Below are positions 46,531 to 64,000 of a stretch of DNA of 64,000 nt, piece after piece. A program made the translations under genes and the position numbers. This DNA is from Candidatus Falkowbacteria bacterium (GTDB taxonomy: Bacteria; Patescibacteriota; Patescibacteriia; Patescibacteriales; WJLG01). The notes beneath the pieces are model-generated. The model saw only the letters and a list, made by a program, of their open reading frames with translations. It did no database searches and had not been told where the DNA came from. How positions within the stretch are numbered: position 1 is the first letter of the stretch; each line of letters opens with the position of its first letter. The DNA lies in NCBI GenBank assembly GCA_963747695.1, contig CAVVFV010000010.1, forward strand, positions 133,618 through 197,617, read 5' to 3'.

Positions 46531-46544
46531 AATTATATCAATTT

Positions 46545-47751: not shown

Positions 47752-47788
47752 GTCGTTATAAAAAACAGGTTTTGAAAATCCGCCCAGC

Positions 47789-48109
47789 TCACTTATCATC
47801 AAATTTTCGTCCGCACAAGGAGCAGTCATAAATGTCCTGATTGTCAGGACTGGCTCCGCCACCCATATTGCACGTTTTCCATGAACATAGTCTCTCTTCT
47901 TTGCAATCGGGATTAAGACAAATGTGCCGGCTAGTATTGTAGATCACGTCTGGATTATCATTCAGATCAATGACACATACAATCGGAGCGCCGCAAACGC
48001 ATTTTTGGTCGATTACCTTTGTGCTGACATCAAGACCAAGATCTTTGATCTTCAGCTTGATCGTCTCTTCAGGAGTGAGTAATTTTTCGGACTTCTTACT
48101 TTCATCCAT
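47789..48109 (-). CDS. Small Cys-rich (zinc-ribbon-like) hypothetical protein
   Basis: Ten cysteines, including C.C, C...C and CSLCG pairs. GGAGGG SD upstream. Confidence 0.55.
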   Translation of the reverse strand: MDESKKSEKLLTPEETIKLKIKDLGLDVSTKVIDQKCVCGAPIVCVIDLNDNPDVIYNTSRHICLNPDCKEERLCSWKTCNMGGGASPDNQDIYDCSLCGRKFDDK

Positions 48110-48158
48110 AATCCCTCCTTTTTAAAGATCAGCATGATTGAACTTATTCTAAAAAAAA

Positions 48159-49265: not shown

Positions 49266-49447
49266 GTTTATTTAAAAATGATAGATGATAAATGATAGAT
49301 GATAAATTTCTTAACATTATTTATCACTTATCATTTATTATTAATCATTGATACAACCTATTGCTTTTTTTATTAATTTATGTTATACTATTTAGACGTT
49401 CATTTGAAATTAATTAGCCATAAAATCCAATCAACGAAAGGATTGCC

Positions 49448-49708
49448 ATGTACCCAGCACCCCTGACAAAAGAAGAATCTGCGGAGAATATCAAGGTGAT
49501 GTTCAGATGGTTCAAGGTCATGATCATTTTGGCCAATCTCGCGGCCATCGCCATCGCCATTACCGACAACCAGGATCTTCCTGAACTCAGCTCCAAAATA
49601 TTTTGCTGCATCCTCGGCGTCGGTATCCCGTGGCTTGCCTTCATGGTCTGCAAATTCATGATCGACAACCAGACCGAACAAGAGCAAACAGGAACCAAAC
49701 AATCCTAA
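49448..49708 (+). CDS. Small membrane protein (86 aa, two TM segments)
   Basis: AAAGGA SD upstream. Own terminator. Confidence 0.5.
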   Translation: MYPAPLTKEESAENIKVMFRWFKVMIILANLAAIAIAITDNQDLPELSSKIFCCILGVGIPWLAFMVCKFMIDNQTEQEQTGTKQS

Positions 49709-49732
49709 CAAACATTTTTTCGATCACCAGAG

Positions 49733-49764
49733 CGCCTCTAAGGAAAAGAGGCGTTTTTATTTTG
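49733..49764 (+). terminator. Intrinsic terminator
   Basis: CGCCTCT-AAGGAAA-AGAGGCG followed by a T-run. Confidence 0.7.
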
Positions 49765-49765
49765 C

Positions 49766-50053
49766 TTAGGCTTTGAATCCGATCTCCTTATTCAATTCTT
49801 CCGCTTCCTTGATCTTGCCGAATTTGGCTTCATAATCTTTCAACGCTTTTTCCATCACCGCGATCATCCGTTTATAATGTCCGGGGTTGGAAATTATCTT
49901 CGCGACCACGCGGCCGTTCTGCCCGACCAGATTGAAAAACGGCAAAGTGAATTCATCCTTATTAAAGACGACTTGCATCGCGTTGGTATACTCCCCGCCC
50001 GGAATGTTGTCGGCGATCTTAATTTCCACCGGCTTAGTTTGATTGGGTCCCAT
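49766..50053 (-). CDS. DUF3467-like protein
   Basis: GGEYTNAMQVVFNKDEFTLPFF pattern, recalled from the family. Confidence 0.55.
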   Translation of the reverse strand: MGPNQTKPVEIKIADNIPGGEYTNAMQVVFNKDEFTLPFFNLVGQNGRVVAKIISNPGHYKRMIAVMEKALKDYEAKFGKIKEAEELNKEIGFKA

Positions 50054-50078
50054 AGTATTAAGAATTATAAATTATAAA

Positions 50079-50651
50079 TTACAAATTATAAATTTTTAAT
50101 CGATTCTTAAATTCTTTCAAACTTTTCACCCCGCCCTTTAAAACCGCTTCGTATATTTTAAAGCCGGCGATTATAATCTTGTTATCATTCCTGAATTTTT
50201 TTAACGCGAGAATCAGCTCTCTCTGCCGATCGGAAATTTTTTTCCAGAAAACGATGCTGGCTTTCGTCCTTCTGGCAAATTCCTTTTCGTCCATGAACCA
50301 AACATCGATCGTCCAGGTTTCGCCGGCGAATCTGGTTTTCATGCCGAGATAATGGCCATTAGGAAATTCTTTGCCCATTCTGGGATCATCCCATTTACCG
50401 CCGATAAAATAACTCTTGAATTTATTCTGCCAATAAAGCCGGTTGAATATCCGTAAAACTTCCTGCCTGGAATATTTTTTTGCTCTCGTCACCTCCAGAT
50501 CAATATCGCCGTGCATCATCAAACCAAGCGAATAGGCGCCGACCAAATGCACCTGGCCGAATTTTGCCAAATCCTTGATCAGTCCGGTCTTGGTCAGTAA
50601 ATTATCGGCTTGATTTTTATATTTTCGGCTGATTCGGGTAAGTTTTGACAT
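50079..50651 (-). CDS. Nucleotidyltransferase-fold protein (putative)
   Basis: HLVGAYSLGLMMHGDIDLEV resembles the G[SG]..D.D minimal NTase motif. AT-rich. Confidence 0.45.
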   Translation of the reverse strand: MSKLTRISRKYKNQADNLLTKTGLIKDLAKFGQVHLVGAYSLGLMMHGDIDLEVTRAKKYSRQEVLRIFNRLYWQNKFKSYFIGGKWDDPRMGKEFPNGHYLGMKTRFAGETWTIDVWFMDEKEFARRTKASIVFWKKISDRQRELILALKKFRNDNKIIIAGFKIYEAVLKGGVKSLKEFKNRLKIYNL

Positions 50652-50660
50652 AGATATTTA

Positions 50661-50712
50661 ATTCCCCTCTTGGGAGGGGTGTCTGCCCCGCACGGACGGG
50701 GTGGGTTTATTG
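50661..50712. repeat. Family E element
   Basis: TTCCCCTCTTGGGAGGGGTGTCTGCCCCGCACGGACGGGGTGGGTTT. Confidence 0.7.
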
Positions 50713-50719
50713 TCTTTCA

Positions 50720-51469
50720 TTATTTAAAAAACTTTTTTATCTTCCGCCAGAATTGCGGCTTGATCGAGTTGCGAGCGGAAAGATGACCGCCCTTCTTTAA
50801 ATATAGGTGTTGGCAGCCAAGGTCTTTAACGAACTTTTTCACTGATGGCGTACTGATAAGCTTATCGTCATTAGCTTGAATTATGAAAATATTTTTGGCG
50901 TTCAATTTTTTTACGACCGAAGCCGGATTATATATTTTACCTTCTTCTAATTTTTTCCAATCGCGGTGATCAAACCGGTATCCTTCGCCGAAGGCCGCAC
51001 GGGTGAATTTTTCCAGCCAAGGCATCGGTTCGATTTTACTATGCACTTCTTCGCGCCAATCAACCACAGGCGAAAACGCCACGGCCTTTTTAACTTTCGG
51101 ACTCTGCGAGGCCAAGATGACCGCCGGTCCGCCGAAACTTGAACCGATCAAATAAACCTGCGGCTTCTTTATCTGCAAAACTTTGCCGCTCCACAAATCC
51201 TTAAAACCTTTCGGCAGTTCTTCAATAATATCCAAGATATCCTGATGCGGTGACACTCGCAAAAACTTTCCGCCGCTCTCCCAGGTCCCGCGATATCTCG
51301 GCAAGAACGCCCAATAGGCTCGCTTAGCCAGCCAAAAAAGCATTTCATCACTTCTGCCCGGATAGCCAGGCATGCCGCCGCAAACAATCACCACCTTATT
51401 CGATCTCTTCTTAGGAGCAACAAACTCGCAGATAATATCTTTCTTAATTCTAGTTCTCAATGTATACAT
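50720..51469 (-). CDS. Alpha/beta hydrolase (dienelactone hydrolase / peptidase S9-like)
   Basis: Nucleophile elbow GSSFGG. The start was moved to ATG 51469 (MYTLRT) because the track's N-terminal 43 aa read through a family E repeat. Confidence 0.75.
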   Translation of the reverse strand: MYTLRTRIKKDIICEFVAPKKRSNKVVIVCGGMPGYPGRSDEMLFWLAKRAYWAFLPRYRGTWESGGKFLRVSPHQDILDIIEELPKGFKDLWSGKVLQIKKPQVYLIGSSFGGPAVILASQSPKVKKAVAFSPVVDWREEVHSKIEPMPWLEKFTRAAFGEGYRFDHRDWKKLEEGKIYNPASVVKKLNAKNIFIIQANDDKLISTPSVKKFVKDLGCQHLYLKKGGHLSARNSIKPQFWRKIKKFFK

Positions 51470-51477
51470 AAATTTAA

Positions 51478-51524
51478 GTCCCCTCTTGAGAGGGGTGGCC
51501 GAAGGCCGGGGTGTGTGAAGATTT
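51478..51524. repeat. Family E element (reverse orientation) directly 3' of the DUF559 gene
   Basis: CCCCTCTTGAGAGGGGTGGCCGAAGGCCGGGGTGTGTGAAGATT. Confidence 0.75.
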
Positions 51525-51947
51525 TCAAAGGCGCGGACTATTTTTACCCATCCAATCCTTAATCTCCTCGACAATCGCCCAACGGGCATTTTTAACATTG
51601 CTATCTGTAAACCGCAAGAATCTTATTCCCAATTTTTCCAATTCCCTCTGGCGAATTTCATCTTCAATTTCTTTATATCCGTGCGAATCACCATCGATCT
51701 CGATCGCCAGCCGCAATTCGTCGCAGAAAAAATCGACAATATAATTTCCCATTGGCTTCTGCCGGTGAAAATTATAACCGCGGATTTTTCTCTGTTTCAA
51801 CTCCTGCCAAAGCAGTATTTCGGCCAAGGTGCTATGTTTTCTCAAATTACGCGCCAGCTGTTTCAATTTTGGATCGTATTTGATCAATAATTTTGTTTTT
51901 CTTATCCCCCTCCTTATTAATAAATTATATTTCCCGCCGCTTCCCAA
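51525..51947 (-). CDS. DUF559 (Vsr-like PD-(D/E)XK) endonuclease-domain protein; start codon uncertain (TTG in track)
   Basis: LRKHSTLAEILLWQELK..GYNFHRQKPMGNYIVDFFC..LAIEIDGDSH..R...L...G...LRF. Confidence 0.8.
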   Translation of the reverse strand: MGSGGKYNLLIRRGIRKTKLLIKYDPKLKQLARNLRKHSTLAEILLWQELKQRKIRGYNFHRQKPMGNYIVDFFCDELRLAIEIDGDSHGYKEIEDEIRQRELEKLGIRFLRFTDSNVKNARWAIVEEIKDWMGKNSPRL

Positions 51948-52083
51948 TCTTCACACACCCCGTCAGTCCGCGGCGGACTGCCACCCCTCTCTAGAGGGGA
52001 CTTTTTCCGACGCCGGTTTCTTCGTTGCGAAGTCCCCTCTGGAGAGGGGTGCCGAGCCCGGCGAGGCGGGGTGTGTGAAGATG
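51945..52083. repeat. Two family E elements in head-to-head arrangement (51945-52005 forward, 52030-52083 reverse)
   Basis: AATCTTCACACACCCCGTCAGTCCGCGGCGGACTGCCACCCCTCTCTAGAGGGGAC ... AAGTCCCCTCTGGAGAGGGGTGCCGAGCCCGGCGAGGCGGGGTGTGTGAAGAT. Confidence 0.8.
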
Positions 52084-52105
52084 TTATTTGCGACAAAATG
52101 ATTTT

Positions 52106-54013
52106 TTACTTCTTTTCTTGGTATTCTCCTTCAACCGGACCCTGTTCATCTTTCTTCGCTTCTCCGGCGTTAGGTTGTTCGGCACCCGGAGCTCCGGCAC
52201 CCGGCTGACCCGCTTGTGATTGGTACATCTTCGCGCCGATCGATTGCGCGAGCTGATTCATTTCTTCCAATTTTTTCTTGATCGCCTCGGTATCCGTGCC
52301 GTCCTTGATCTTTTTCAGATCTTCGACATGATCGGTTAAAGTCTTGATATCTTCCGGCGACATTTTGGCGCCCATATCTTTGATCAATTTTTCCGTCTGG
52401 AAAATCACACCCTCGGCTTGATTTTTCAGATCAATGCTTTCCTTTTTCTTCTTGTCATCCTCGGCATGCAGTTCGGCTTCTTTCTTCATCTTCTCCACTT
52501 CTTCCTTGGATAAACCAGAGGAAGCAGTGATGGTGATCTTCTGCTGTTTATTGGAAGCTTTGTCGGTCGCGGAAACATTCAAGATGCCGTTGGCGTCGAT
52601 ATCAAATTTAACTTCAACTTGCGGGACACCGCGAGGAGCCGGCGGAATGCCGTCGAGCATAAATCTGCCCAAAGTTTTATTATCAGTCGCCATTGGCCGT
52701 TCGCCTTGGAGAATATGGATTTCGACGGAAGTCTGGCCATCAGCCGCGGTCGAGAAGACCTGGGATTTCTGTGTCGGGATGGTGGTGTTGCGTTCGATCA
52801 ATGGAGTGGACACGCCGCCCAAAGTCTCAATGCCCAAAGTCAAAGGCGTCACATCAAGCAACAAGATATCTTTCACTTCGCCTCTTAAAATACCGCCTTG
52901 CACGCCGGCGCCAGCCGCCACGACTTCATCCGGATTGACTGACATATTCGGGTCTTTCTTGAAAAAATCTTTAACCAGGGCTTGCACCATCGGCATGCGA
53001 GTCTGGCCGCCGACCAAAACGACTTCTTGCAGATCTTCAACTTTCATTCCCGCGTCAGCCAAAGCTTTTTTGCAAGGCTCGATAGTTTTCTGCACCAAAT
53101 CGCCCACCAATTCTTCCAATTTCGCGCGAGTCATTTTTTTCACCAAATGCTTCGGACCTTCCGCGCCGACAGTAATGAAAGGCTGATTGATTTCGGTTTC
53201 CATCGCGCTCGACAATTCGATCTTGGCTTTTTCGGCCGCTTCCTTGATGCGCTGCAAAGCCAGCGGATCTTTGGACAAGTCCACGCCGTTCTCGCGCTTG
53301 AAATCATCCAAAATCCAATTGATGATGCGCTGATCAAAATCCGCGCCGCCCAAATGCGTATCGCCGTTGGTGGCTTTCACCATCACGCTGTCGCCGGAAA
53401 CATCCAAAATGGAAACATCGAAAGTTCCGCCGCCCAAATCGTAGACCACGATCTGATGGCCTTGCTTCTTGTCCATACCGTAAGCCAAAGCGGCCGCGGT
53501 CGGTTCGTTGATAATTCTTTTCACATCTAGCCCAGCTATCTGGCCGGCATCTTTGGTCGCCTGTCTTTGCGAATCGTTGAAGTAAGCCGGCACGGTGATG
53601 ATCGCTTCGGTGATGGTTTCGCCCAAACGCGCTTCGGCATCAGCTTTTAATTTTGACAAGATCTTGGCGGAAATTTCCTGCGGAGTATATTCTTTGCCGG
53701 AAATGATGATCTTCACGCCTTCGCCGGCCTGCACGATCTTGAACGGCATATTCTTGAGGTCGCGCTGAACTTCGGCATCATTGAAATGACGGCCGATCAA
53801 ACGCTTAACTTCAAAAATCGTGTTCTCCGGATTAGTGACGGCTTGCCGTTTCGCTGAAGCGCCCACCAGCCATTCGCCGGATTTGGAAATCGCGACGATG
53901 GACGGAGTAGTTCTCATGCCTTCCGAATTTTCTAAAATTTTCGGCTGCCCGCCTTCGACGATCGCCATCGCGGAGTTAGTTGTTCCTAAGTCGATTCCTA
54001 GTATTTTACTCAT
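52106..54013 (-). CDS. dnaK: Molecular chaperone DnaK (Hsp70)
   Basis: [17 protein letters not shown], full substrate-binding domain and lid. Confidence 0.97.
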
Positions 54014-54044
54014 AGATTTTTTTATTAAATTAATTTTTATAAAA

Positions 54045-54284
54045 CTAAATTTTACCCTGTTTTATATTCATCTTCTCCCTTGCAGTTAAAGTTTTTGAAT
54101 CCGGACATTTATCTTTTAAAATTTTCATTATTCCTTTTAATTCATCAATGACTTCCTTAGAAAGACAGGCTTCGGATTGAATATTTTCGTTTGAATTTAA
54201 ATTTTGAATCCTTGAATGAATTCCTGCTTTAAGCTCGCGATATTTTTTTATTAATTTTTCACAATCATTATTTTGATTTTCCAT
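54045..54284 (-). CDS. Small hypothetical protein (79 aa), AT-rich
   Basis: Begins 3 nt after the upstream gene's stop codon. No family recognised. Confidence 0.5.
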
Positions 54285-54287
54285 AAT

Positions 54288-55061
54288 TTATTTTTTAGCT
54301 CTGGCAGAGTCTTGCCCTAAGGACTCCGACGAGGCCAATTTTTTAGATTCTTCCCACGTTTTATTAATTTCTTTTTGGCGTAATTTCTTTAATTCCGCGG
54401 AATCGCAATAATCACCGCCAAGCTGATCTTTAAAACGTTTTTCTATTTCTTCCATTCTTATATATAACTTTTCTCTTGCGTAAAGGTGCTCTTGTCCATC
54501 CTCTCTAGATAAATAATTTAATATTTCCATCTCGTGAACAACATCTCCTAATACATCCATGTAGTCAGTCCAGTCTTTAACCACCCTATCAAGCAATGTT
54601 TTATCATGTTTAAAGCGTTCGCTAAGGCGAATAAAGTTTTTTTTACCACAATCAAACGAAGCAATCTCTATTCCGTTTTGTTCACCATCTTTCAAATCCC
54701 TTGTTTTTATTTTATTTAAAAGAAAACTTTCCTTTTGTTCAATTTCGGCTCGTACATCTTCGTTAGCTCCGTCAGAGGCTTCCTCCACAGACCCCGATGA
54801 TATCAAACGCTGCTTAATTTTTCCTTTTTTACCATACACTAGTAATTTATAAATTTTATATGTCAGAAAAGCTGAGCCAAAAGCCCCAATTAAAATTGCT
54901 GCCGAATTTACATCAGAATATACTCTGGCATTTTCCGAAATATGTATTCCAATCATATTTAATACTAAAGTCGTGATCAATGCCACGATAAATTTAATCA
55001 CTTGGTAAAAAATTATTAATGTAAAAAAACCAATTACAAATCCTAAAATTTTTTTTCCCAT
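54288..55061 (-). CDS. Hypothetical membrane-anchored protein (257 aa; two N-terminal TM segments and a charged helical C-terminal domain), AT-rich
   Basis: Hydrophobic segments FVIGFFTLIIFYQVIKFIVALITTLVL and AAILIGAFGSAFLTY. Confidence 0.6.
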   Translation of the reverse strand: MGKKILGFVIGFFTLIIFYQVIKFIVALITTLVLNMIGIHISENARVYSDVNSAAILIGAFGSAFLTYKIYKLLVYGKKGKIKQRLISSGSVEEASDGANEDVRAEIEQKESFLLNKIKTRDLKDGEQNGIEIASFDCGKKNFIRLSERFKHDKTLLDRVVKDWTDYMDVLGDVVHEMEILNYLSREDGQEHLYAREKLYIRMEEIEKRFKDQLGGDYCDSAELKKLRQKEINKTWEESKKLASSESLGQDSARAKK

Positions 55062-55129
55062 AGTTGTTAGTTCAAATTAATTAATTTTGGCTCTGACAGA
55101 GTCTCGCGGCTGCAGACTCTGCCAAGGCT

Positions 55130-55300
55130 GATCTTCACACACCCCGTCCGCGCGGCGCGGCCACCCCTCTCAAGAGGGGAATTTTACTTGTCATTGCGAG
55201 CGCCTCGCGAAGCAGTCTCGCCCTGACTGCGTCTGCTCTTGGGCAGGACATATTAGCCGCGAGGCGCGGGTTTGCTTCGTCGCTAATCGCTCCTCGCATA
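55130..55300. repeat. Composite of a family E element (55130-55186) and a TGTCAT-terminated element of the GCGAGCG type (55189-55300)
   Basis: GATCTTCACACACCCCGTCCGCGCGGCGCGGCCACCCCTCTCAAGAGGGGAA, then TGTCATTGCGAGCGCCTCGCGAAGCAG..CCGCGAGGCGCGGG..CGCTCCTCGCA. Confidence 0.7.
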
Positions 55301-55314
55301 TGTGTTATGTTTTT

Positions 55315-55749
55315 TTATTTCTTCTCAATCTTAATATTTTTTACGACCTGTTCGGTTCCCGCTTCGGAATACTGAATTTTCAAGATGCCGGACTCGGAAA
55401 TGGCCGAGGCTCTGTCGCCGTCCACATGAGCCGGTAACGGAATGGAACGGAAGAATGAGCCGCGGCGGATTTCTTTGCGGTAATAATCTTTATCTTCCAC
55501 CTCGCTTTTCTTTTCGCTTTCGCCCTTGATCGTCAACACATCATTTTCGATGGCGATGGAAACTTTTTCCGGATCGATTCCGGCTAATTGCGTTTCGACA
55601 ATTAAATTACCGCCATCCTCATATATATCCACGGCTGGGACAAAGCCGGCGGAATCGGTGCGGCGCACCATCGGCACGAATTCAGAGAACATCTTGTCCG
55701 TATCATCGAACCCGTCGAAGAACGGACTCCACTTGATTAAATTGCTCAT
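55315..55749 (-). CDS. Hsp20/alpha-crystallin family small heat-shock protein
   Basis: VDIYEDGGNLIVETQLAGI..VSIAIENDVLTIKGE..F.RSIPLP..V....A....GIL.I. Confidence 0.9.
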   Translation of the reverse strand: MSNLIKWSPFFDGFDDTDKMFSEFVPMVRRTDSAGFVPAVDIYEDGGNLIVETQLAGIDPEKVSIAIENDVLTIKGESEKKSEVEDKDYYRKEIRRGSFFRSIPLPAHVDGDRASAISESGILKIQYSEAGTEQVVKNIKIEKK

Positions 55750-55761
55750 ATTTTTTTACAT

Positions 55762-55871
55762 TGTCATTCCGACCGAGCACGCCGCGTGCGAGCGGAGGAA
55801 CCGCTTCGAGTTATTTAAAACTTTAAGGGGTCCTTCGACTGCGGCCGAGGCGGCCTTCGCTCAGGATGACA
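55762..55871. repeat. TGTCAT-terminated palindromic element, family B, filling the grpE-hsp20 spacer
   Basis: TGTCATTCCGACCGAGCACGCCGCGTGCGAGCGGAGGAACCGCTTCGAG..CTTTAAGGGGTCCTTCGACTGCGGCCGAGGCGGCCTTCGCTCAGGATGACA. Confidence 0.85.
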
Positions 55872-55885
55872 AAAAAAATAAATTA

Positions 55886-56401
55886 TTACTCTAGAACTAC
55901 GCGGGCGGCACGGATTACTTTGCCGTTTAATTTATAGCCGGTCATAATCTCTTTCGCGACTTTTTCGCCGGTGCCTTCGACCGCTTCCATTTCGGCCGGA
56001 TTGAATTTCTCGCCGATCGTTTTTATCTCATCAACGCCATTCACGCTCAGTAAATCTTTAAATTGCTTCACGGTATATTCCACGCCCTTCACCCAGGCGC
56101 TGGCCTTTTCAGCTTCCGGCAAAGATATGATGGATAATTTCAAATGATCGTAGACCATCAAAAATTCCGATAGAACTTCCTGATTGGCATATTTCACGAA
56201 TTCATCCTTTTCGATCGATTGCCGTTTGATCAGATTCTGTTCTTCCGCCAGCACGCGCAAATACTTATCATTGGCGTCTTTCAATTCGGTTTCCAAACGC
56301 AGAATTTTTTCATCAGCAGTTTCTTCCTGCGGTGCAATTTCTTCATTATTTTTTCCCTTGTCCTCCGTATCTTTAGCGGAGGAGGATTTTTCTTCTGACA
56401 T
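55886..56401 (-). CDS. grpE: Nucleotide exchange factor GrpE
   Basis: Coiled-coil N-terminus, YLRVLAE.QN..KR, C-terminal beta domain GYKLNGKVIRAARV. Confidence 0.9.
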   Translation of the reverse strand: MSEEKSSSAKDTEDKGKNNEEIAPQEETADEKILRLETELKDANDKYLRVLAEEQNLIKRQSIEKDEFVKYANQEVLSEFLMVYDHLKLSIISLPEAEKASAWVKGVEYTVKQFKDLLSVNGVDEIKTIGEKFNPAEMEAVEGTGEKVAKEIMTGYKLNGKVIRAARVVLE

Positions 56402-56412
56402 ATTTAATCTTC

Positions 56413-56523
56413 TGTCATTCCGACCGAACGCGCCGCGCGTGAGCGGAGGAACCGCTTCGAGTTTTTTAAAAACTTTAAGGGGTCCTTCGACTGCGGCCGC
56501 GGCGGCCTTCGCTCAGGATGACA
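56413..56523. repeat. TGTCAT-terminated palindromic element, family B, filling the hrcA-grpE spacer
   Basis: About 95% identical to 55762-55871 by eye. Confidence 0.85.
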
Positions 56524-56532
56524 AAATAATTT

Positions 56533-57231
56533 TTAACTTTTAACTTTTAACTTATTTAAAATATACTCAACTAGCGACAGATTCCGTTCGTAGTCCATCC
56601 GCATCGGGCCGAGGATGCCGAACAAGCCGGATTGATTGCCGCGTTTGTATTTGGCAAGGATCGCGCCGCAGAAATTGCCGAACGGATTTTCTTCGCCGAT
56701 CATAATTTGCGCTTCGGTGCCGGTCTTTTCAAAAATATTATCGATAATCTCGTCCATCCGGTCGATCACGGCGGATACATTATATACCAAGCCGCTGTTC
56801 AAGAATTCCGGCTGCTGAAAAAGATTGGATAATCCAGTGTAATAAAGATTATTTTTGTGGAAAGCCCAGAACACAGCGGAATCGGTCAGCGCCGCCAAAG
56901 TCTTGGCCGTGTCGCGCATCGCTCCCTCGTCCGAATCACCCAAAGCAATATCTAATTCCTGCAAATCTTTATCTTTGATTTTCTTCGCTTTTTTCTTGCC
57001 GATCACTTCCGCTAAATATAATTTATAGGCGGCTTCGGTGGGAACGCGGCCGGCGGAAGTGTGAGGCTGGCGGATAAATCCTTCCTCTTCCAGTTCCGCC
57101 ATAATATTGCGCACGGTCGCCGAAGAGCAATCCAGTTTATATTTCTCCACCAAATTCGAAGACCCGACCGGTGCGCCGGTCGAAATATGTTCTTTAATGA
57201 TGGCTTCAAGAATTTGTTTTTTCCGATCCAT
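56533..57231 (-). CDS. hrcA: Heat-inducible transcription repressor HrcA (short form, 232 aa)
   Basis: Winged-helix N-terminus ILEAIIKEHISTGAPVGSSNL..SSATVRNIMAELEEEGFI.QPHTSAGRVPT. A CIRCE operator lies upstream. Confidence 0.85.
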   Translation of the reverse strand: MDRKKQILEAIIKEHISTGAPVGSSNLVEKYKLDCSSATVRNIMAELEEEGFIRQPHTSAGRVPTEAAYKLYLAEVIGKKKAKKIKDKDLQELDIALGDSDEGAMRDTAKTLAALTDSAVFWAFHKNNLYYTGLSNLFQQPEFLNSGLVYNVSAVIDRMDEIIDNIFEKTGTEAQIMIGEENPFGNFCGAILAKYKRGNQSGLFGILGPMRMDYERNLSLVEYILNKLKVKS

Positions 57232-57366
57232 AGTTTTTCGCTTCGCTCGGCCGCACTACTGATGCGGCGCATACGAATATTACGTAATGTTGATCTACGA
57301 ATGCATCCAAATCACTAAATTAATGTTCGAGTCATTCAGCTTCGCTCGTAGATTGGAATTATTATC

Positions 57367-57396
57367 ATAATACTTTATTTAGCACTCAGGTGTCAA
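57367..57396 (-). promoter_or_regulatory. Probable hrcA promoter: the -35 TTGACA lies in the CIRCE spacer, followed by an 18-nt spacer and -10 TATTAT
   Basis: Read on the minus strand: TTAGCACTCTTGACACCTGAGTGCTAAATAAAGTATTAT. Confidence 0.45.
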
Positions 57397-57405
57397 GAGT
57401 GCTAA
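57379..57405. promoter_or_regulatory. CIRCE operator (HrcA binding site), a perfect inverted repeat
   Basis: TTAGCACTC-AGGTGTCAA-GAGTGCTAA matches the consensus TTAGCACTC-N9-GAGTGCTAA exactly. Confidence 0.9.
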
Positions 57406-57525
57406 ATAATCAGCAATTAACCATTCCCGCTCTTGACTATTTTAATTTTTTATGCCAAATTATAATCGGTTCGTTTACAATCAATTCTTGTCCGATATTT
57501 TTCAAATCCCAAAAAGGAGAAACGT

Positions 57526-58881
57526 ATGGAAGGTAAATTTTTTAAAGGCTCAGTAAGCGGCTTTCCGCTTCGCGGTAGGCTGATAAATTTCGGCAGCGGC
57601 GACGCCGGCAAAACGCTTTCGGCCGCCACGAAAGTGGCCAAGGGCGCGTTGGTAGTCGGCGGCGGCCTGGCTGTCGCCAGCGGCATTATCAACCTGTTCA
57701 AATTCGGGGGTAGCTTATTAACAGCTGCTTTTGAGTCGTATGAGAGTGAAGAAGAGAAAAAAGAAAGAATCAGAAGGGAAGAAGAAATAGCCAGGGAATT
57801 GGCAAAGCAGCGGAGCAGACAGGCCTTAGAAAAATTCAAAAATGGACTTCCCGAAATGCTGACGATCGATCTCTTGTGCATGGCCAAAACTGAGGACCAA
57901 TTATTTTATGGCATTTGCGCCAGTGATAATCTGGATATCTTTTGTGAACATGAACCGTTTTCAATCCCGATTAAATTAATCAAGTTGATTACCCAGATTG
58001 AAAACCGGGGAACCCTGCTGAATGCGGTCGTCCTGCTTGACGGTTCAACTTTCGTCGTTAACGATTATTTGGACGAATTACCGACTTTGAATTTCTGGAC
58101 TGTCGCCGGACTGCACAAGATTCCTCTTGGTTCAGATCTCCAGTTTGTCAGCGGAATGATGCCCAAAGATAAAGAGCAACTTGCTCAAAACTTGAGAACC
58201 TTCATGGCCCAAAAGGAAGATGATATAATTTCCCTGCTCGGCGAAGAGGGGCTGATGAAAATATTGACCGAATGCGGTATTAACCCGGTGCCAAGGCGAT
58301 TAGCTGGCCTGACTCCGGCCGCCAATTGCGAAAAACAAAAAGCCGAACCGCCGCACGAGGGGGAAAGCCCCGCTACTGCAACAGAAAAAACTCCGCTGGC
58401 GGATTCAGACTCAACTTCCCGCAAAGAAGAAACAGCTGTTCCGGATACCCAGCCCAGCGAACAGCTGAAAAGAGCGGCGATCTATGCCAAGCTGGATGAA
58501 GTCGACCGCCAAAAACTGATGACCAATTTTGAACGGGCGGAAGAAACTGTTCCGTCAGAAAAAGCAATGCTGCTCGAAACGGAGCGACTAATCAAGAAGG
58601 TCAAATTCCATATAAAAGAGCTCGAATTTAGGATTCGCCGGCTGTCCAATGAATTCAAATTTGACCGGAAGACACTCAAATCCAACAAAAATATCGTCAA
58701 GATTTTCAAAAACAACAAGGAGCAATATGAGGAGAACTTGCTCGAACTGGAAACTAACGCCAAAGACCTGCGACTGCAGCTAAGTAAGTGGGCGGAATAT
58801 AAGAAAATAATATTCACCAGCGATGCCGACGGATTAGATTCACTGGGCGAAGAGCTTCGGCGCGCGACTTTGGTGCAATGA
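57526..58881 (+). CDS. Hypothetical protein (451 aa): Gly-rich N-terminal hydrophobic segment, acidic/basic coiled coils, low-complexity linker
   Basis: AAGGAG SD. VVGGGLAVASGIINLF segment; EEEKKERIRREEEIARELAKQR; C-terminal heptad-like region. No family recognised. Confidence 0.65.
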   Translation: MEGKFFKGSVSGFPLRGRLINFGSGDAGKTLSAATKVAKGALVVGGGLAVASGIINLFKFGGSLLTAAFESYESEEEKKERIRREEEIARELAKQRSRQALEKFKNGLPEMLTIDLLCMAKTEDQLFYGICASDNLDIFCEHEPFSIPIKLIKLITQIENRGTLLNAVVLLDGSTFVVNDYLDELPTLNFWTVAGLHKIPLGSDLQFVSGMMPKDKEQLAQNLRTFMAQKEDDIISLLGEEGLMKILTECGINPVPRRLAGLTPAANCEKQKAEPPHEGESPATATEKTPLADSDSTSRKEETAVPDTQPSEQLKRAAIYAKLDEVDRQKLMTNFERAEETVPSEKAMLLETERLIKKVKFHIKELEFRIRRLSNEFKFDRKTLKSNKNIVKIFKNNKEQYEENLLELETNAKDLRLQLSKWAEYKKIIFTSDADGLDSLGEELRRATLVQ

Positions 58882-58939
58882 ATGCCAAAATTCGCCAACG
58901 GTAGTTGTCGGCAAACTTCTCAACCAGTTTTCAATCAGC

Positions 58940-58971
58940 GCGCGTCCATTCCTCTGGACGCGCTTTTTTTA
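58940..58971 (+). terminator. Intrinsic terminator
   Basis: GCGCGTCCA-TTCCTC-TGGACGCGC followed by T7. Confidence 0.75.
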
Positions 58972-58995
58972 GCTTCTTCGAACCATTTTTTCAAC

Positions 58996-59021
58996 AAAAA
59001 AAAGCAACCCAAGGGGGTTGC
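58996..59021 (-). terminator. Intrinsic terminator after the TPR gene
   Basis: On the minus strand: GCAACCC-CCTT-GGGTTGC followed by T8. Confidence 0.7.
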
Positions 59022-59025
59022 AGTT

Positions 59026-59592
59026 CTACTTGGCAGCAAACGCTAAATCGTTGCTGCTGAACATTTGCTTTTGCATCGCATCGTGCAGACAATGGAATGC
59101 CTCGGCCTTGCTGTTCCGCTGAACTTCGGCGACTCGCAGCCGCGCCGCTTTGATCCGTTCAAACGAATCTTTCTCCTCTTTTTTCAAGCCGGCTGCCGTC
59201 CCCAGCGACAATTCATCGAGCAGCGATAGTGCCCGGTCCCAATCACCCAAATTGCTGTAAAGGCCGGATTGAAAGAACATCACGTATCGGCTTTTTTTGC
59301 CCGGTCGGCTTTGACCATTTTCCGGTTCAAAAGCATCGAGCTGCTCAGCGGAATCAGACGGATTGAGCGTTGCATACAGATCGGCGGCATGGTTCAAGAG
59401 AATTTCGGCCGACTTGAGCCATCCCAAGCGCCGACAAGTTTCGCCCAGATAATAATAGACTGTGTGGCTGTTCGGGTTATTTTTCCGCGCCTGGCGAAAA
59501 TGTATTAACGCCTCGTCCAGATTATTTTCTTCCAGACTCAATATTCCAAGATTGCAGCGAGCTTCAAACCCCAGTTTTTTAGCCATAGCCAT
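59026..59592 (-). CDS. TPR-repeat protein (188 aa)
   Basis: Two to three TPR-like units (LDEALIHFRQARKNNPNSHTVYYYLGETCRRLG..). GGAGGATGG SD. Confidence 0.65.
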   Translation of the reverse strand: MAMAKKLGFEARCNLGILSLEENNLDEALIHFRQARKNNPNSHTVYYYLGETCRRLGWLKSAEILLNHAADLYATLNPSDSAEQLDAFEPENGQSRPGKKSRYVMFFQSGLYSNLGDWDRALSLLDELSLGTAAGLKKEEKDSFERIKAARLRVAEVQRNSKAEAFHCLHDAMQKQMFSSNDLAFAAK

Positions 59593-59689
59593 CCTCCTTA
59601 TTATGAAGGAACAAAGCGTCTTCCTGCCTTTAATATTAGGCCGTTGGCTGGCTTTGTCAATCCAAAATTCGGCTAAAATTATCGTGCTC

Positions 59690-59718
59690 TTGACATTTTT
59701 ACTAATTTATGATAAGAT
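59690..59718 (+). promoter_or_regulatory. Sigma-70-like promoter (TTGACA-17-TAAGAT)
   Basis: Read directly; lies 69 nt upstream of ATG 59787. Confidence 0.55.
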
Positions 59719-59786
59719 TCCCTGATTTTAGAAGAACTTTCTAAAATATTAAAAGATCGCTATTTCACAATTAAAAGGGAGGTTTT

Positions 59787-61476
59787 ATGTTCTCTGTCGT
59801 CCTCATCACCGGTTTGTTTCTGGTTGCCGTGTGTTGGTTGGTCCACTTTGTCGCGTGGGTCAACTCAAAAATGCTCGCGCCCGACGGATCAGTCGAGTGG
59901 CTAAAAGTGAACGGCAAGGAAGACCGCGCCCAGATCGCGCTGAAGTTTTACTTCGGCGACAATTTTGGGTGGACGATCAGCGTCCTGCGTTCCGTCTTCC
60001 GCGTCCTGATCAAGGTCGCCGCGACACTCTGGCGTTTCACCGCTCCGGCCATCGTCAGAGCCGCCAAAAAAATTCAGTTGTCGCTTTCCATAGCGCGGCT
60101 GAAAATTTTGAAAGCGCGCGCTGAAAAGAAAGCCAAGGCGGCGCGGAAAATCGTGCCGGTCATTCCCAAAGCGCGGCAGGTCAAAGCTGACAAGAAAAAG
60201 GAATTCGTCCCGATTCGGATCGAAGAACCAAAAACGGAACTGCTCGCAACAGCAAAGCTTGCGGCGGCGGAACCGGTGGCGGAAAAAGACGAGGAGCTGA
60301 CGCTGAAAGAAAAACTGGCGGCGCTCTTTGCCAAATTACTTCCCGCGAAGCCGGTGAAGAAACCCGTGCCGGTGAAAAAACCGACCGATCGGGACTTGCT
60401 TGACCAGTATCATCGCGATGCTGAAAAAACCGTCGACTACCGAACGCAAATGCATTACCTCGAACTCGCCAAAACGCAAATTCCCTTGGACATCTTTATC
60501 AGAATGCCTGGTGGAGCCGAAATTCTGGATAAATATCTGGAAAGTAATCTTTGGGTCAGGCGGCGCTGGGAATCAGTTTGCCAATATTATTTCAGTCTGC
60601 CGTTTGAAGAACTCAATGACGAATCGTGGGTTCGGCATTGGCATTATACGGTCTGCCTGGAATCCATCCTCAAAACCGCCATCGTTCTTCCTTCCGAAGA
60701 AAAACCGGCCGATCCGATAGTCCAGCACTTCCAAACGTCGCTGCCTGAACAACAAAGCGGCGTCACGCTGGCCAATTCGAACGGAGTTTCGTTCGCTACG
60801 CTTTTTGACAAGACGGTGGGCAAAATTGTCCATGAGGATAACGAATCCCTGCCCGCCTTAGTCGAAAAACCGAACACGGAAGCGAATGACGCCTCACGAA
60901 CATCCGCTACGGCAAATCCGCCGGCGGCTGCGACCAAAGAAAAAACTTCCGAACCGGAAATCAAAATCGCCAAAGTCGAGGCGGTCGTCACGGGTAAGGA
61001 AGACAAAGAAAAAGTAAGCGTACTGATCAAACAGGTTGATCGCACGAAGGAAGTCCAAACTCGCCAAACAAATCCGCAATCGGAAGGAGAGAGTATGAAA
61101 TTCTGGGAAGATCTGAAAAATGTGTTGGGCCTGATCCCACGCCTGAAAGGACGGTCAAAGGACGTCAAAAAAGCGCACGACGAGCTGATCGTAGCCGCCC
61201 TTAAAAAACAGGTTGCGGATACGAACAGCGATGTGCTGGTCGCCGACAAAGCCAACATGGAATTGCGCAGAGCAATTTCTCAACGAGAAAAAGAATCTGC
61301 TTCCTTTGGAACAGGAAGTCAGCGAATCATGGTTGTTGCACTACATAGAGCTCGATGAAGCCAAGAAAGCCCACGAGCAAGGCAAAACCATCGAAGAAAT
61401 CAAGCTCAAACTCAGTTCGCCCAAGGATGGCGAACCGGAAACTATGCCCAAAGCGGCTCAAGAACAGCTGGCCTAA
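59787..61476 (+). CDS. Hypothetical membrane-anchored, Lys-rich/coiled-coil protein. The track ORF ends at 61358, but the reading frame appears to shift by +1 near the A5 run at 61288-61292 and continue to 61476
   Basis: GGGAGG SD. N-terminal TM VVLITGLFLVAVCWLVHFVAW. The +1 frame (KKNLLPLEQEVSESWLLHYIELDEAKKAHEQG..) ends 25 nt before a strong terminator. Confidence 0.6.
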
Positions 61477-61500
61477 GGCGAGCAAGCATCAAATGTATCG

Positions 61501-61537
61501 ACCCTGACTGTCTTATTCAGTCGGGGTCTTTTTTTAT
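61501..61537 (+). terminator. Intrinsic terminator
   Basis: ACCCTGACTG-TCTTAT-TCAGTCGGGGT followed by T7. Confidence 0.7.
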
Positions 61538-61637
61538 TCATTATCTAAAAAATATAGCTAAAACCTCTTAATTTTCCCGATAAATTATCTCTAATATTAA
61601 ATGATTTACCGCCATTTTCATCTTTCCCCTAAAACCA

Positions 61638-61667
61638 TTGACTTTTCATGCTATTTTATGCTATACT
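61638..61667 (+). promoter_or_regulatory. Strong sigma-70-like promoter with extended -10 (TTGACT-18-TATACT, TGC immediately upstream of the -10)
   Basis: Read directly. The predicted TSS near 61674 gives a ~270-nt leader for the SPFH gene. Confidence 0.6.
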
Positions 61668-61700
61668 AAAATGATTTGGAATAAGGCAAATTCTGCCAAG

Positions 61701-61863
61701 GGGACTGTCATCGAATGCTCATTTAGTCATAAATTTTCAAATTTTGAGGAAATTTTTTTCAAAAATTTTTGAAGCGATATGACCATATCGTTGAAAAGAT
61801 TTTTGAAAAAATTTACCGAAATTTGAAGATTTAGGGCAAATACGGCATTCGATGACAGTTCCC
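61701..61863 (+). other. About 163-nt imperfect long hairpin (TGTCAT-containing 18-bp outer stem, AT-rich inner stems, apical CGATATG-ACC-ATATCG). Either a structured 5' leader or a MITE-like element
   Basis: GGGACTGTCATCGAATGC pairs with GCATTCGATGACAGTTCCC. TTCAAATTT, AAATTTTTT and CAAAAAT segments pair across the axis near 61783. Confidence 0.6.
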
Positions 61864-61947
61864 GAATCTGAATCAAATGTCCCTTACAATTTTTTGTAAG
61901 TAACATCAAAACAATCCATTCTGAAACCTTAATCAAAGGAGTCCTGT

Positions 61948-63720
61948 ATGATGAACGCGCTTATCGTTGTCGCGATTGTGTTGGCTGTCTATCTTCTCGC
62001 CCGGTTCTGGATCTTCCGGAACTGGTTCGCGAAGAGAAAGACGGAGACCGAGTATGAGAAACGATTGTCGGAAATCCGCGCGACCGAAGAAGGAAGAAGG
62101 GTCGCCGACGAAATCCGCCTAACTGAGCTGGACCTCGAAAGAACGAAGAAGCAAACCTTGACCGAACAGGAAAAGATCAACCTCATCCAGTTGCGCAAAA
62201 CTCATCTCGAGTTGAAGCGGTCATTGCTCAAATCCTTGAAGGATGAAGAGCCGACTGCCGGCGCAACGGACTCCGGAGTCGAAGATTCCCAAAACAAGCG
62301 AAGCCGTCGCGGGAAAAAAGGCTGGTCAGTAATGATCAGTTTAGTTTCGCTGGCCGCAATCGTCATTTGGGCCGGAATGAGTTTTCTCAATCACTGGGAA
62401 TGGCCCGCCACCTATCTGCCGATCATCGGTATGATCGCGGCCGCCGTGCTCATCATCAGGAGACTTAATTCGAACAAAAAAAACAAGGTCAACCAGACAG
62501 GAAACAAGACGGGCAGGAAGTCCAAACCAGGCAAAAAAAAGAGCAAAGAAATTACTCAATTATTTTACCCTCACTGGTTATGGATTTCGTTTCTGGCAAT
62601 GATAAGTCTTATTCCTATTACCGTTTTGATTCTGAATCTTTCTTGGCAGTACAGTCAGAAACATCCGGCAATTTTTTATCTCAGCATTGTCATTTCCCTG
62701 CTCATCGCGGCTTATTATCTGGTGCGTACGGTCAAAGGCGCAAACAATCCGTTGCCGGAAAAAGATGAGTTTGCCGTAACTATTTTTAAAAAATATTGCG
62801 GCACAAGGAAAACCCCCGGGCTATTCTTTGCCTTTCCCCTTTTCGGCTGGGTCGAACTTCTGGGCATAAGCACGGAAGACGATCAAGAGCAATTATTCCA
62901 AGTGGTCGATAAAGAAGGAAAAGTGAGCACGGCGCGGTTTGACCTCGACGATGCGAGCGTTCCCCTGCTGGCCGACGTCTTCTTCCGAATCGTCGATGCG
63001 TATAAATTCCTTTTCGGCAATGAAGATAGCGTCCAGTCCATGGTCGAATATGTCGAAGCCTATCTGCGGCGAGTCTTTATAGTGCCAGCGGATGCGGCAA
63101 GCGGAAAATCAGAACGAGTCATGAATTTGGAAGAAGCCTTACTGTTCAAAGCCAAAGACATGATCACCCGCTTTAATACCGAGAATAACGAAAACGGAGA
63201 AGTTCATCGTGATTTCGTTAAGTCTCATTGGGGAATAGAAGTTTTTCGGATCCAGATCAGGGACTTTGACCTAAATGAAGAACAGCGCAAAGCGTTAAAT
63301 ATGAAACTTGAAGCGAAAAAAAGAAAAGAAGCGGCCCGGGAAGATGCCGATGCCGAAGCTGTGCGAGCTGACGGCAAAGCGCGCGGAATCGAAAGGCTGG
63401 CTAAAGCAAGCCGGGTGGAATTTGCGGAAAATGCCGCAGGATATTCGGATGCCGTAAACTCGTTCGCGGGCAAAGTCGAACCCGACGAAGTTCTTTTTCA
63501 CATTAGGGAAATGAGAAAATTCGGTATGCCTAATGCCACCCTCGTCATCAGCGACGGAGGCGGCAATGCGGCATTTGGCGCCCAATTCGAAGCGGGCCGC
63601 CAAGCTTACAACAGAAACAACGAAAGGAAAGAACCAAATGCTGAAACCATATTACCCAAGAAACGGCCGGACGGTTCAAAGGAAGGAACAGGGTCTTCCG
63701 ACAAAAAACCCAACGGCTGA
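61948..63720 (+). CDS. Polytopic membrane protein with a C-terminal SPFH/Band-7 (prohibitin/flotillin-like) domain
   Basis: AAAGGAG SD. About five TM segments with a coiled coil and a Lys-rich linker. SPFH-like FRIVDAYKFLFG..WGIEVFRIQIRDFDL..EAKKRKEAAREDADAEA. Confidence 0.7.
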   Translation: MMNALIVVAIVLAVYLLARFWIFRNWFAKRKTETEYEKRLSEIRATEEGRRVADEIRLTELDLERTKKQTLTEQEKINLIQLRKTHLELKRSLLKSLKDEEPTAGATDSGVEDSQNKRSRRGKKGWSVMISLVSLAAIVIWAGMSFLNHWEWPATYLPIIGMIAAAVLIIRRLNSNKKNKVNQTGNKTGRKSKPGKKKSKEITQLFYPHWLWISFLAMISLIPITVLILNLSWQYSQKHPAIFYLSIVISLLIAAYYLVRTVKGANNPLPEKDEFAVTIFKKYCGTRKTPGLFFAFPLFGWVELLGISTEDDQEQLFQVVDKEGKVSTARFDLDDASVPLLADVFFRIVDAYKFLFGNEDSVQSMVEYVEAYLRRVFIVPADAASGKSERVMNLEEALLFKAKDMITRFNTENNENGEVHRDFVKSHWGIEVFRIQIRDFDLNEEQRKALNMKLEAKKRKEAAREDADAEAVRADGKARGIERLAKASRVEFAENAAGYSDAVNSFAGKVEPDEVLFHIREMRKFGMPNATLVISDGGGNAAFGAQFEAGRQAYNRNNERKEPNAETILPKKRPDGSKEGTGSSDKKPNG

Positions 63721-64000
63721 AAAGGAAAACACAAATGGTGAATCGGGAACTCCGGAAAAATGCCAACCAACGGGCAGGCCGGCGGTGAGCAATGAAACAC
63801 TGTCAATTCTTTTCGTGATCGGAGTATTCGTAGTCGGGACAATTCTTCTGGCATATCTCCAGAACTTGAAAAACCCTGCCGCGACCATCACGGACATCGT
63901 GTTCAGCAATAATTTCTGGTTGTTTACCGTAGCCTGCGTTTTAAGCTGGATCTACGGCGTGATCAAGAAAAAAAGCTTGCTGCACGTTGTCAACCGAATT
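63638..64000 (+). CDS. Hypothetical membrane protein, 3' end beyond the window; overlaps the SPFH gene end by 83 nt in another frame
   Basis: Not in the track (no in-window stop). ATG 63638 follows AAAGGAAAG. Translation MLKPYYPRNG..SILFVIGVFVVGTILLAYL..FWLFTVACVLSWIYGVI is open to 64000. Confidence 0.5.
   Translation, partial: MLKPYYPRNGRTVQRKEQGLPTKNPTAEKENTNGESGTPEKCQPTGRPAVSNETLSILFVIGVFVVGTILLAYLQNLKNPAATITDIVFSNNFWLFTVACVLSWIYGVIKKKSLLHVVNRI

Follow-up and report, generated by a model that had tools for sequence, protein, structure and literature searches.

Which of the genes packed behind a bacterial heat-shock locus belong together, and with what partner? The question is raised by a stretch of 64,000 nt from a Candidatus Falkowbacteria bacterium (contig CAVVFV010000010.1), which in its whole length is called the window here, and in which five open reading frames (ORFs), genes A to E, stand beside hrcA, grpE, hsp20, and dnaK (Table 1). 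An initial annotation of this DNA, whose five reading frames are all present, suggested that they might form a single membrane-scaffolding or stress-response module. Comparison of the window with loci of related genomes (labelled L001 to L019) leads to a different grouping. The core is an operon of two genes, D and E, which encode an SPFH protein and a small membrane protein, and in relatives this operon is followed by the gene of a VirB2-like pilin. We judge it probable, though only just, that the window holds the SPFH-type version of a Patescibacteria-specific cassette, which has the D-E operon as its core and ends with the pilin in relatives, and in which a cytoplasm-facing SPFH ring organizes E and the pilin.

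Gene D encodes a rare SPFH protein. The Pfam family Band_7 (PF01145) matches residues 278-471 with 33.8 bits, compared to a cut-off of 23.6, and five transmembrane (TM) helices are predicted, which bears out the annotated polytopic protein of 590 aa with an SPFH/Band-7 domain. Word-indexed searching for homologues yielded no more than the query itself and a single relative, also when an 8-sequence profile was used. Exhaustive HMMER searching of 1.84 billion cluster representatives retrieved 135 family members at E<=1e-3 (seven at E<=1e-30), and Band_7 was matched by 90 of 92 D-family members. Canonical SPFH proteins, such as ordinary HflK/C and stomatins, were not retrieved by the D profile. 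Because the representatives number only 135 and the canonical proteins stay outside, D belongs to a small and distinct clade. An AlphaFold2 (AF2) model based on a 92-sequence alignment has a mean predicted local distance difference test score (pLDDT) of 81, with values >90 across residues 200-520. Strands at residues 266-348 and 430-440 and a helix at 444-505 make up the alpha/beta SPFH fold and a long coiled-coil helix. Foldseek aligned the model with human stomatin (6e-11), HflK/C (1e-10), and QmcA-YbbJ (2e-9), and also with prohibitin, erlin, and flotillin; the probability was 1.00 for stomatin, HflK/C, QmcA, prohibitin, and erlin. A sequence-profile search of the PDB gave QmcA (1.9e-4) and an archaeal stomatin. 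An assignment as HflK or HflC is not supported, as NCBIfam TIGR01933 scores 20.6 bits compared to a cut-off of 159.4, the locus has a single SPFH gene, and the orientation is predicted to be cytoplasmic.

The order of parts in D is a TM helix, a coiled coil, two successive TM hairpins, and the SPFH domain. The coiled coil after TM1 holds the motif ATEEGRRVADEIRL and is followed by the TM2-TM3 hairpin, which occurs in the window and L001 only, and by a Lys-rich linker. In the second part of the protein, the TM4-TM5 hairpin stands directly before the SPFH domain (266-440), and then come a first coiled-coil helix of 62 residues (CC1, 444-505), a second one (CC2), a C-terminal helix, and a Gly-rich tail. 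Counts of positive charges predict that both the coiled coil and the SPFH domain are cytoplasmic. The N-terminal module is also found without its SPFH domain, as a separate gene in L008, L011, and L019, and it is fused to other SPFH domains in the proteins P0073 and P0106. The likeness was detected between the D profile and L011_139 (E=4.5e-4), between L019_182 and L011_139 (1.5e-6), and between L019_182 and the D protein of L007 (0.008). In L006 (165-1773), the D homologue stops early at 306 aa with an unrelated tail, and a gene for a GIY-YIG endonuclease adjoins it; D may have been disrupted by a homing element there.

For gene E, the full-length homologues supply the part that is cut off by the end of the window. 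They have 224-271 aa and, in a six-sequence alignment, three TM helices and a beta-rich C-terminal domain of ~90 aa, the sequence of which has beta-strand periodicity. The N-tail is charged, is predicted to be cytoplasmic, and carries the motif YPRxGR. The E profile matches the gene after D in L001, L002, L004, L005, L007, and L013-15. E also follows D in L016-18, and the E-like gene of L016 is linked to E of L013 by BLASTP (8e-8). The D-E pair is present in eight of the nine lineages with sequence beyond D, and at least seven lineages have both genes intact and in full length, with conserved motifs. A scan for promoters and terminators found one promoter common to D and E and no terminator between them. 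The expectation that the SPFH protein would have a small membrane partner was therefore sound as far as the operon pair goes, which is conserved across distant genomes, but the NfeD-like nature that had been considered for such a partner is not borne out by any match in E.

The gene that comes after E was invisible to the initial annotation, because its position lies beyond the end of the window. In all five lineages with enough sequence (L002, L004, L007, L013/14, and L016), a profile search identified a pilin gene of family PF18895 directly downstream of E. PF18895 is the family used to trace VirB2-like pilins in the candidate phyla radiation (CPR), and components of the type IV secretion system (T4SS) and a pilin array are reportedly indispensable to Patescibacteria that live as epibionts (bioRxiv 10.1101/2025.01.22.634366). 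The C-terminal hairpin of the pilins is 56-80% identical among the loci compared here and the ectodomain varies. The pilins of L004 (9173-10135) and L019 (1464-2441) have a Cys-rich ectodomain of ~200 aa before the conserved C-terminal TM hairpin; the others have 15-60 residues in that place.

The order of these genes is kept in differing surroundings. L004 reads hsp20, grpE, hrcA, the TPR gene (minus strand), C, D, E, the PF18895 pilin, and tyrS; L007 reads dnaK, hsp20, grpE, hrcA, a 230-aa gene, D, E, the pilin, and tyrS. In L013/14, a D that is 26% identical to that of the window is followed by E and the pilin between genes for a DEAD helicase and a cation ATPase, and in L016 a TPR gene, D, the E-like gene, and the pilin lie next to gyrB and the TIM gene. 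L001 has the TPR gene (minus strand), C, D, and E, with identities of 73% for B, 42% for C, and 42% for D. L002 and L005 have D and E, and the contig of L003 ends ~170 nt after D and gives no information on E. D-E is thus a conserved pair, and D-E-pilin is a recurring unit. The L001 contig (GCA_028712675.1, JAQTQY010000073.1) is labelled 'Candidatus Omnitrophica bacterium' at NCBI, and the only close homologue of D has a 'Candidatus Omnitrophica' name there as well. An assignment of the window to Omnitrophota was nevertheless dropped, as its Hsp20, IF-2, and RNase Y fall into 90%-identity clusters that bear the name 'Patescibacteria group bacterium', and the locus in relatives has the PF18895 pilin of CPR bacteria. 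The cassette of L001 and these housekeeping relatives of the window point to Patescibacteria, and the L001 sequence may be mis-binned or mislabelled.

The conserved pair could be given a simpler meaning. D-E might be an ordinary SPFH-NfeD housekeeping pair, a divergent form of QmcA-YbbJ or stomatin-NfeD that modulates FtsH or membrane protein quality control, with the pilin as an incidental neighbor. The best solved relatives of D, namely QmcA, the archaeal stomatin, and human stomatin, agree with this, as does the build of E, since NfeD has been described as having three hydrophobic segments and then a soluble domain that is all-beta, its gene sharing an operon with that of the SPFH protein (PMC2636767). 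However, NfeD (PF01957) was not found in full-length E homologues at E<=1 (L001, L002) or at E<=0.1 (L013), E has no family in Pfam or NCBIfam, and profile searches of the PDB were also negative. Besides its beta-domain of ~90 aa, E has an additional conserved cytoplasmic N-tail of 35-75 residues. By charge counts, the C-terminal domain would be extracellular and thus across the membrane from the SPFH domain, whereas NfeD domains are on the SPFH side; this placement is weakly determined for E and clearer for L019_420 and L008_414, of which only L019_420 has a demonstrably E-type domain. The last 100 aa of L019_420, a polytopic protein beside a pilin and not associated with any SPFH protein, are 71% identical to the beta-domain of E from L004, and the pilins next to these two proteins have 56% identity, with the Cys-rich ectodomain counted in. 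Finally, the pilin follows E in every one of the five lineages, in three different flanking contexts. A housekeeping pair of the SPFH-NfeD type is therefore unlikely.

The favored reading, in which an SPFH ring organizes E and the pilin, can be spelled out as follows. D would be held by its hairpin TM helices, with the N-terminal module and the SPFH domain predicted to face the cytoplasm. By analogy with stomatin, QmcA, and HflK/C, with which it has the CC1/CC2 architecture in common, D would most likely form a ring-shaped or dome-shaped assembly at the cytoplasmic surface of the membrane. E would be its partner with three TM helices, a cytoplasmic YPRxGR N-tail, and a beta-rich C-terminal domain outside the cell, and the pilin gene is expected after E, just beyond the end of the window. 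The D ring may corral E and a membrane pool of pilin protomers, and the corralled pilin could be stored, sorted, or quality-controlled before it is used by a surface apparatus encoded elsewhere. Diversifying pressure would act on the outward-facing beta-domain and on the ectodomain of the pilin. A bolder possibility, which we put forward tentatively, is a dedicated SPFH cage for a secretion pilin. D, E, and the pilin would then act as one transmembrane unit in these ultra-small, epibiotic bacteria, recombination at a fixed chromosomal slot would swap the exposed beta-domain and ectodomain jointly from lineage to lineage, and the cassette would be a means of switching the specificity for hosts or surfaces, organized from the cytoplasm by the SPFH ring.

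Several points weigh against an SPFH ring with a pilin as its client. The pilin profile has no match in positions 1-64000 of the window, which ends inside E, and the contexts of the D family were sampled in nine lineages, compared to 135 family representatives. Genes for VirB4, VirB6, VirB3, or a coupling protein, sought with lists of Pfam families within 10 kb of the cassette, are absent in L004, L007, L008, L011, L013, and L019. As no T4SS machinery is nearby, the family name of the pilin is the sole link to secretion. The pilin can do without the SPFH protein, since other relatives lack D-E and have retained the pilin gene, and in Agrobacterium the T4SS sits in SPFH-marked membranes and SPFH proteins are not needed (PMC8656257). 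The topology of E is weakly determined by charge counts, and gene order alone is never proof of physical interaction. Given the frameshift in gene C described below, the cassette of this genome may also be in decay, at least in part.

The cassette occupies a hypervariable and mosaic slot between hrcA and the pilin. Between the window and L004, the nearest relative, HrcA is 92%, Hsp20 85%, and GrpE 75% identical, and the values are 47% for D, 30% for B, 25% for E, and ~18% for C. At the DNA level, the window resembles L004, L008, and L019 across the heat-shock genes as far as the controlling inverted repeat of chaperone expression (CIRCE), and the likeness is regained only at the promoter of D and in the SPFH core. 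In L008-12 and L019, whose DnaK or Hsp20 is ~90% identical, hidden Markov models found none of B, C, D, and E except a weak TPR match in L008 and the beta-domain of L019. The layout is nevertheless the same in these loci, and from hrcA onward they have a C-like first gene and then genes for a TM-coiled-coil(-TM) protein (139-194 aa), a soluble protein (206-313 aa), a polytopic protein (~400-420 aa), and the pilin. The free TM-coiled-coil proteins resemble the N-terminal module of D and stand behind the same promoter, and a membrane part is common to L019_420 and L011_402. The slot evolves by rapid divergence and by module exchange between lineages. A diversity-generating retroelement (DGR) was considered as the origin of this variability; the slot showed neither a reverse transcriptase nor a template repeat, and the only Avd-like gene is ~10 kb distant, in L011. 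The Avd-like gene (L011 19408-19752, ~9 kb beyond dnaK) has a 23S_rRNA_IVP match and a weak bAvd match in Pfam, and its product is possibly a DGR accessory protein.

Across the versions of the slot, promoters are better conserved than the proteins encoded behind them. The promoter element of gene C is conserved in the window, L001, and L004, and a TGATAAGAT promoter with a palindromic leader precedes the first gene in the window, L001, L004, L007, and L019; the leader motif stands before L019_295 and L007_230. Equivalent leader palindromes occupy the same place in L001, L007, and L019, and the palindrome of the gene C leader could be an operator or a 5' hairpin. The D promoter is also found before D in L001, L003, L004, and L006, and before the free TM-coiled-coil-TM gene in L008-10 and L019. 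The leader of D carries an insertion of 160 bp, with arms of 70 nt that are 73% complementary, which is present as a single copy in the window and is lacking in the D leaders of L001 and L004, which are conserved in other respects. It resembles a miniature transposable element.

Such a slot could also be a variable defense or competition island of the anti-phage or toxin-immunity kind, in which D-E would be a membrane-disrupting or abortive-infection pair. Its content differs sharply among genomes with ~90% identical DnaK, selfish elements are near in relatives (genes for GIY-YIG, DUF559, and HigB-like toxins), and the D leader has received the palindromic insertion. However, no anti-phage model of PADLOC rises above noise; the sub-threshold matches, PbeC at 18.7 bits and a 2TM effector at 13.2 bits, fall on coiled-coil and TM segments only. 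No version of the slot has a nuclease, NTPase, or sensor domain. Layout and promoters are conserved across versions, unlike the free assortment in defense islands, and the cassette always ends with the same conserved pilin gene. We regard a defense island as quite improbable.

Genes B and C form a separate divergent pair, a frequent but separable accessory that consists of a first gene ('gene 1') and a TPR gene. B is a soluble TPR protein, and its Pfam matches are TPR_2 (41.4 bits, cut-off 27), TPR_14 (31.6, cut-off 23.5), and TPR_1 (30, cut-off 27.8). C has an N-terminal TM helix, the conserved sequence EWLKVN...KFYFGDNFGW, a Lys/Arg-rich helix, a long and variable low-complexity middle part, and a conserved helical C-terminus. 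Two members of the C family were found among 5.8 billion proteins, and the AF2 model of C (pLDDT 42, mostly helices and disorder) was too poor for a structure search. The protein is 42% identical to its homologue in L001 and ~18% to that in L004, the latter by a weak collinear hhalign match, and its N-terminal domain is weakly common to L008_356 and L019_295. In L007, D-E is accompanied by neither a TPR gene nor a recognizable C, and L008 has B, by a weak match, and the C-like gene without D-E. Divergence is discordant too, as B is 73% identical to the homologue in L001 and 30% to that in L004, compared to 42% and 47% for D.

Gene A is a genome-specific orphan insertion that is unrelated to the conserved unit and lies outside it. 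Its product has one Gly-rich hydrophobic segment (residues 37-55) followed by charged helical sequence. It forms a singleton cluster, without a relative in any fetched locus or in the viral contigs of IMG/VR, and it is absent from L004, where HrcA is 92% identical. The PADLOC match to PbeC noted above is its only one and falls on the coiled coil. Two possible relationships were rejected. Similarity to the 230-aa first gene of L007 reaches E=0.04 only, and that gene has the leader motif of gene C instead; a phage origin is not supported by any relative in IMG/VR.

These results bear directly on the proposal that A-E are one membrane-scaffolding or stress module that works with the heat-shock operon. 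Cassette genes do adjoin hrcA-grpE-hsp20-dnaK in the window, L004, L007, L008, L011, and L019, all five products are of the membrane, coiled-coil, or adaptor type, and B, C, D, and E occur together in the window, L001, and L004. But co-occurrence across relatives fails for the set as a whole, as A has no homologue in the loci examined, B-C and D-E are each found without the other and diverge discordantly, and close relatives have unrelated genes in the slot. The heat-shock genes lie on the minus strand directly upstream of A, in the order hrcA (56533-57231), grpE, hsp20, two orphan ORFs, and dnaK. The single CIRCE overlaps the -35 hexamer of the hrcA promoter and is upstream of any candidate promoter for A; no further CIRCE was found in the window with up to three mismatches allowed, and none stands before B, C, or D. 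CIRCE marks the left edge of the variable slot and is outside the module, and DNA similarity to L004, L008, and L019 ends exactly there. In L013 and L016, the D-E-pilin unit is away from any heat-shock or chaperone gene. Because the sole CIRCE is on the hrcA promoter and the unit is far from chaperone genes in these two loci, no tie to heat shock is seen. The adjacency is lineage-specific inherited synteny and not co-regulation, and a five-gene module of this kind is very improbable.

A last alternative is that these are fast-decaying, lineage-specific ORFs under relaxed selection, whose conservation reflects inherited order only. Gene C gives some support to this, since it is split by a +1 frameshift at ~61269 (61260-61270: GAA TTG CGC A GAG). 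The protein of ~560 aa that had been annotated is recovered as 562 aa once the frame is repaired, and it then aligns end to end with the 561-aa homologue P0003, but no intact ORF for it exists in the window. The site is not in a homopolymer run, and programmed frameshifting was rejected, as a slippery run is lacking and the reading frame is continuous in the homologues. Either the gene has truly been inactivated by mutation, or the assembly is in error. The truncated D homologue beside the GIY-YIG gene in L006 and a divergence that is extreme compared to the neighboring genes point in the same direction. Against decay stand intact D and E genes in at least seven lineages with conserved motifs, a confidently folded SPFH domain, a D-E-pilin order that is kept in unrelated flanking contexts, and promoters that are better conserved than the coding sequence. 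Decay under relaxed selection is hardly probable at all.

Table 1. Coordinates of the genes and signals of the cluster in the window (position 1 is the first nucleotide of the window).
Feature	Position	Strand	Remarks
CIRCE operator TTAGCACTC-N9-GAGTGCTAA	57379-57405		hrcA promoter; zero mismatches
Gene A	57526-58881	+	451 aa
Gene A terminator	58940-58963		Scan
Gene B terminator	59021-59004	-	Scan
Gene B	59026-59592	-	Soluble TPR protein, 188 aa; divergent from C
Gene B promoter-like site	59660-59633	-	Scan
Gene C promoter and leader	59690-59746	+	TTGACA-17-TAAGAT, upstream TG, conserved block TGATAAGAT
Palindrome TTTTAGAA-N5-TTCTAAAA	59726-59746		Just downstream of the gene C -10
Gene C, main ORF	59787-61358	+	523 aa
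Gene C, tail ORF	61213-61476	+	Holds the last 69 residues; C overall 59787-61476
Gene C terminator	61500-61528	+	Scan
Gene D promoter TTGACTTTT...TATGCTATACTAAAATGATT	61638-61676	+	Promoter scan
Palindromic insertion, 160 bp	61702-61861		17-nt terminal inverted repeats; 5' leader of D
Gene D	61948-63720	+	SPFH protein, 590 aa
D residues 1-200, N-terminal module	61948-62547	+	AF2 secondary structure, positive-inside counts
D residues 201-590, TM4-TM5, SPFH, coiled coils	62548-63720	+	Pfam, AF2, Foldseek
Gene E	63638-64000	+	Frame open from ATG 63638; 83-nt overlap with D; first 120 residues, window ends inside E

The cluster genes are otherwise poor in recognizable families. TPR in B and SPFH/Band_7 in D exceed the curated Pfam cut-offs, and the Pfam scan of A and C gave no match, in agreement with the initial view that TPR and SPFH are the only identifiable families. 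NCBIfam, PADLOC, and PHROGs yielded nothing above threshold for the cluster genes and no usable family for A, C, or E. Sequence searches of the PDB with A, C, E, and the E beta-domain were negative, as were an Rfam search of positions 50000-64000 and profile searches of the genome contigs with the TPR and SPFH alignments. The claim that each gene has its own good promoter or terminator applies to A, B, and C, each of which has a sigma-70-like promoter and a strong intrinsic terminator, and not to D and E, which share one promoter. The remaining window ORFs that were scanned are housekeeping genes, i.e., dnaJ, ruvB, a UvrD/PD-(D/E)XK helicase-nuclease gene, a gene with a UvrC endonuclease domain, a gene for an ABC-transporter auxiliary protein, and a queuosine-synthesis gene; no T4SS family was found in ten large ORFs scanned at 33216-51598.

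Some further features were seen in and around the heat-shock locus. A direct repeat of ~116 nt (55762-55877 and 56413-56529, 87-94% identical) lies in the spacers upstream of hsp20 and grpE; it holds GC-rich inverted repeats and could be a regulatory element or a dispersed repeat. The interval between hsp20 and dnaK (54045-55061) carries the two orphan ORFs; the longer encodes 257 aa, with hydrophobic segments in its N-terminal part and a coiled coil, and the shorter encodes 79 aa. Different small genes (59+139, 215, or 216 aa) occupy this interval in related genomes, which makes it a second variable slot within the heat-shock locus. A GC-rich element of 44 nt downstream of dnaK (52033-52076) is 93% identical to positions 3489-3532 of L001, in the spacer between C and D there; it translates as '...GAEPGEAG...' and is a dispersed intergenic repeat in both genomes.

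To our knowledge, SPFH proteins are near-ubiquitous and very few bacterial ones have a defined client. A small, delimited SPFH clade with a genetic link to a single family of membrane clients, the VirB2-like pilins, offers a concrete and testable client hypothesis, and in the literature that could be searched no paper links SPFH proteins to the pilins of CPR bacteria. A cassette locus that is hypervariable and anchored by its promoters could also explain how surface structures diversify in reduced genomes. If the pilin link is incidental, the locus is still a clean case of module shuffling, in which SPFH proteins occur with or without the TM-coiled-coil module and a beta-domain moves between membrane scaffolds.

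Among known systems, QmcA-YbbJ of E. coli and stomatin-NfeD of Pyrococcus (PH1511/PH1510) are the best sequence and fold matches of D, and they have the same general plan, an SPFH protein with a long coiled-coil helix and a small, beta-rich partner with three hydrophobic segments in one operon. The SPFH domain of QmcA is reported to be cytoplasmic, as is predicted for D. Unlike these proteins, D has an additional N-terminal TM-coiled-coil(-TM hairpin) module and a hairpin anchor and forms part of a rare clade of its own. In E, no likeness to NfeD was detected; it has a long cytoplasmic N-tail, its beta-domain is probably extracellular, and in the cassette the SPFH gene comes first and a pilin gene follows the partner.

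With HflK/C-FtsH, D has in common the SPFH fold and the CC1/CC2 helices of the cage-forming type. The differences are that there is one SPFH gene and no K/C pair, that ftsH is not adjacent, and that the orientation of D is predicted to be cytoplasmic instead of periplasmic. The flotillin-NfeD2 pairs (FloT/YuaG-YuaF of B. subtilis, YqiK-YqiJ of E. coli) likewise join an SPFH scaffold protein to a membrane protein from the same operon in which an all-beta domain is present. However, flotillin gave Foldseek values of 5e-6 or worse with a target-normalized TM-score of ~0.25, and D is much shorter after CC1, without the extended repeat region of the flotillin type.

The VirB2-like pilin arrays of Patescibacteria belong to the same PF18895 family and the same phylum and also have variable ectodomains, and highly variable pilin ectodomains have been proposed to serve host adaptation (bioRxiv 10.1101/2025.01.22.634366). 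The pilin genes described there are near virB4 or in tandem arrays, and SPFH/Band-7 proteins are not mentioned (bioRxiv 10.1101/2025.01.22.634366). Unlike those loci, the cassette has a single pilin gene far from any T4SS gene and always after a membrane protein with an E-type beta-domain. D-E(-pilin) is thus an uncharacterized variant of the SPFH-plus-partner theme with an unexpected link to a pilin.

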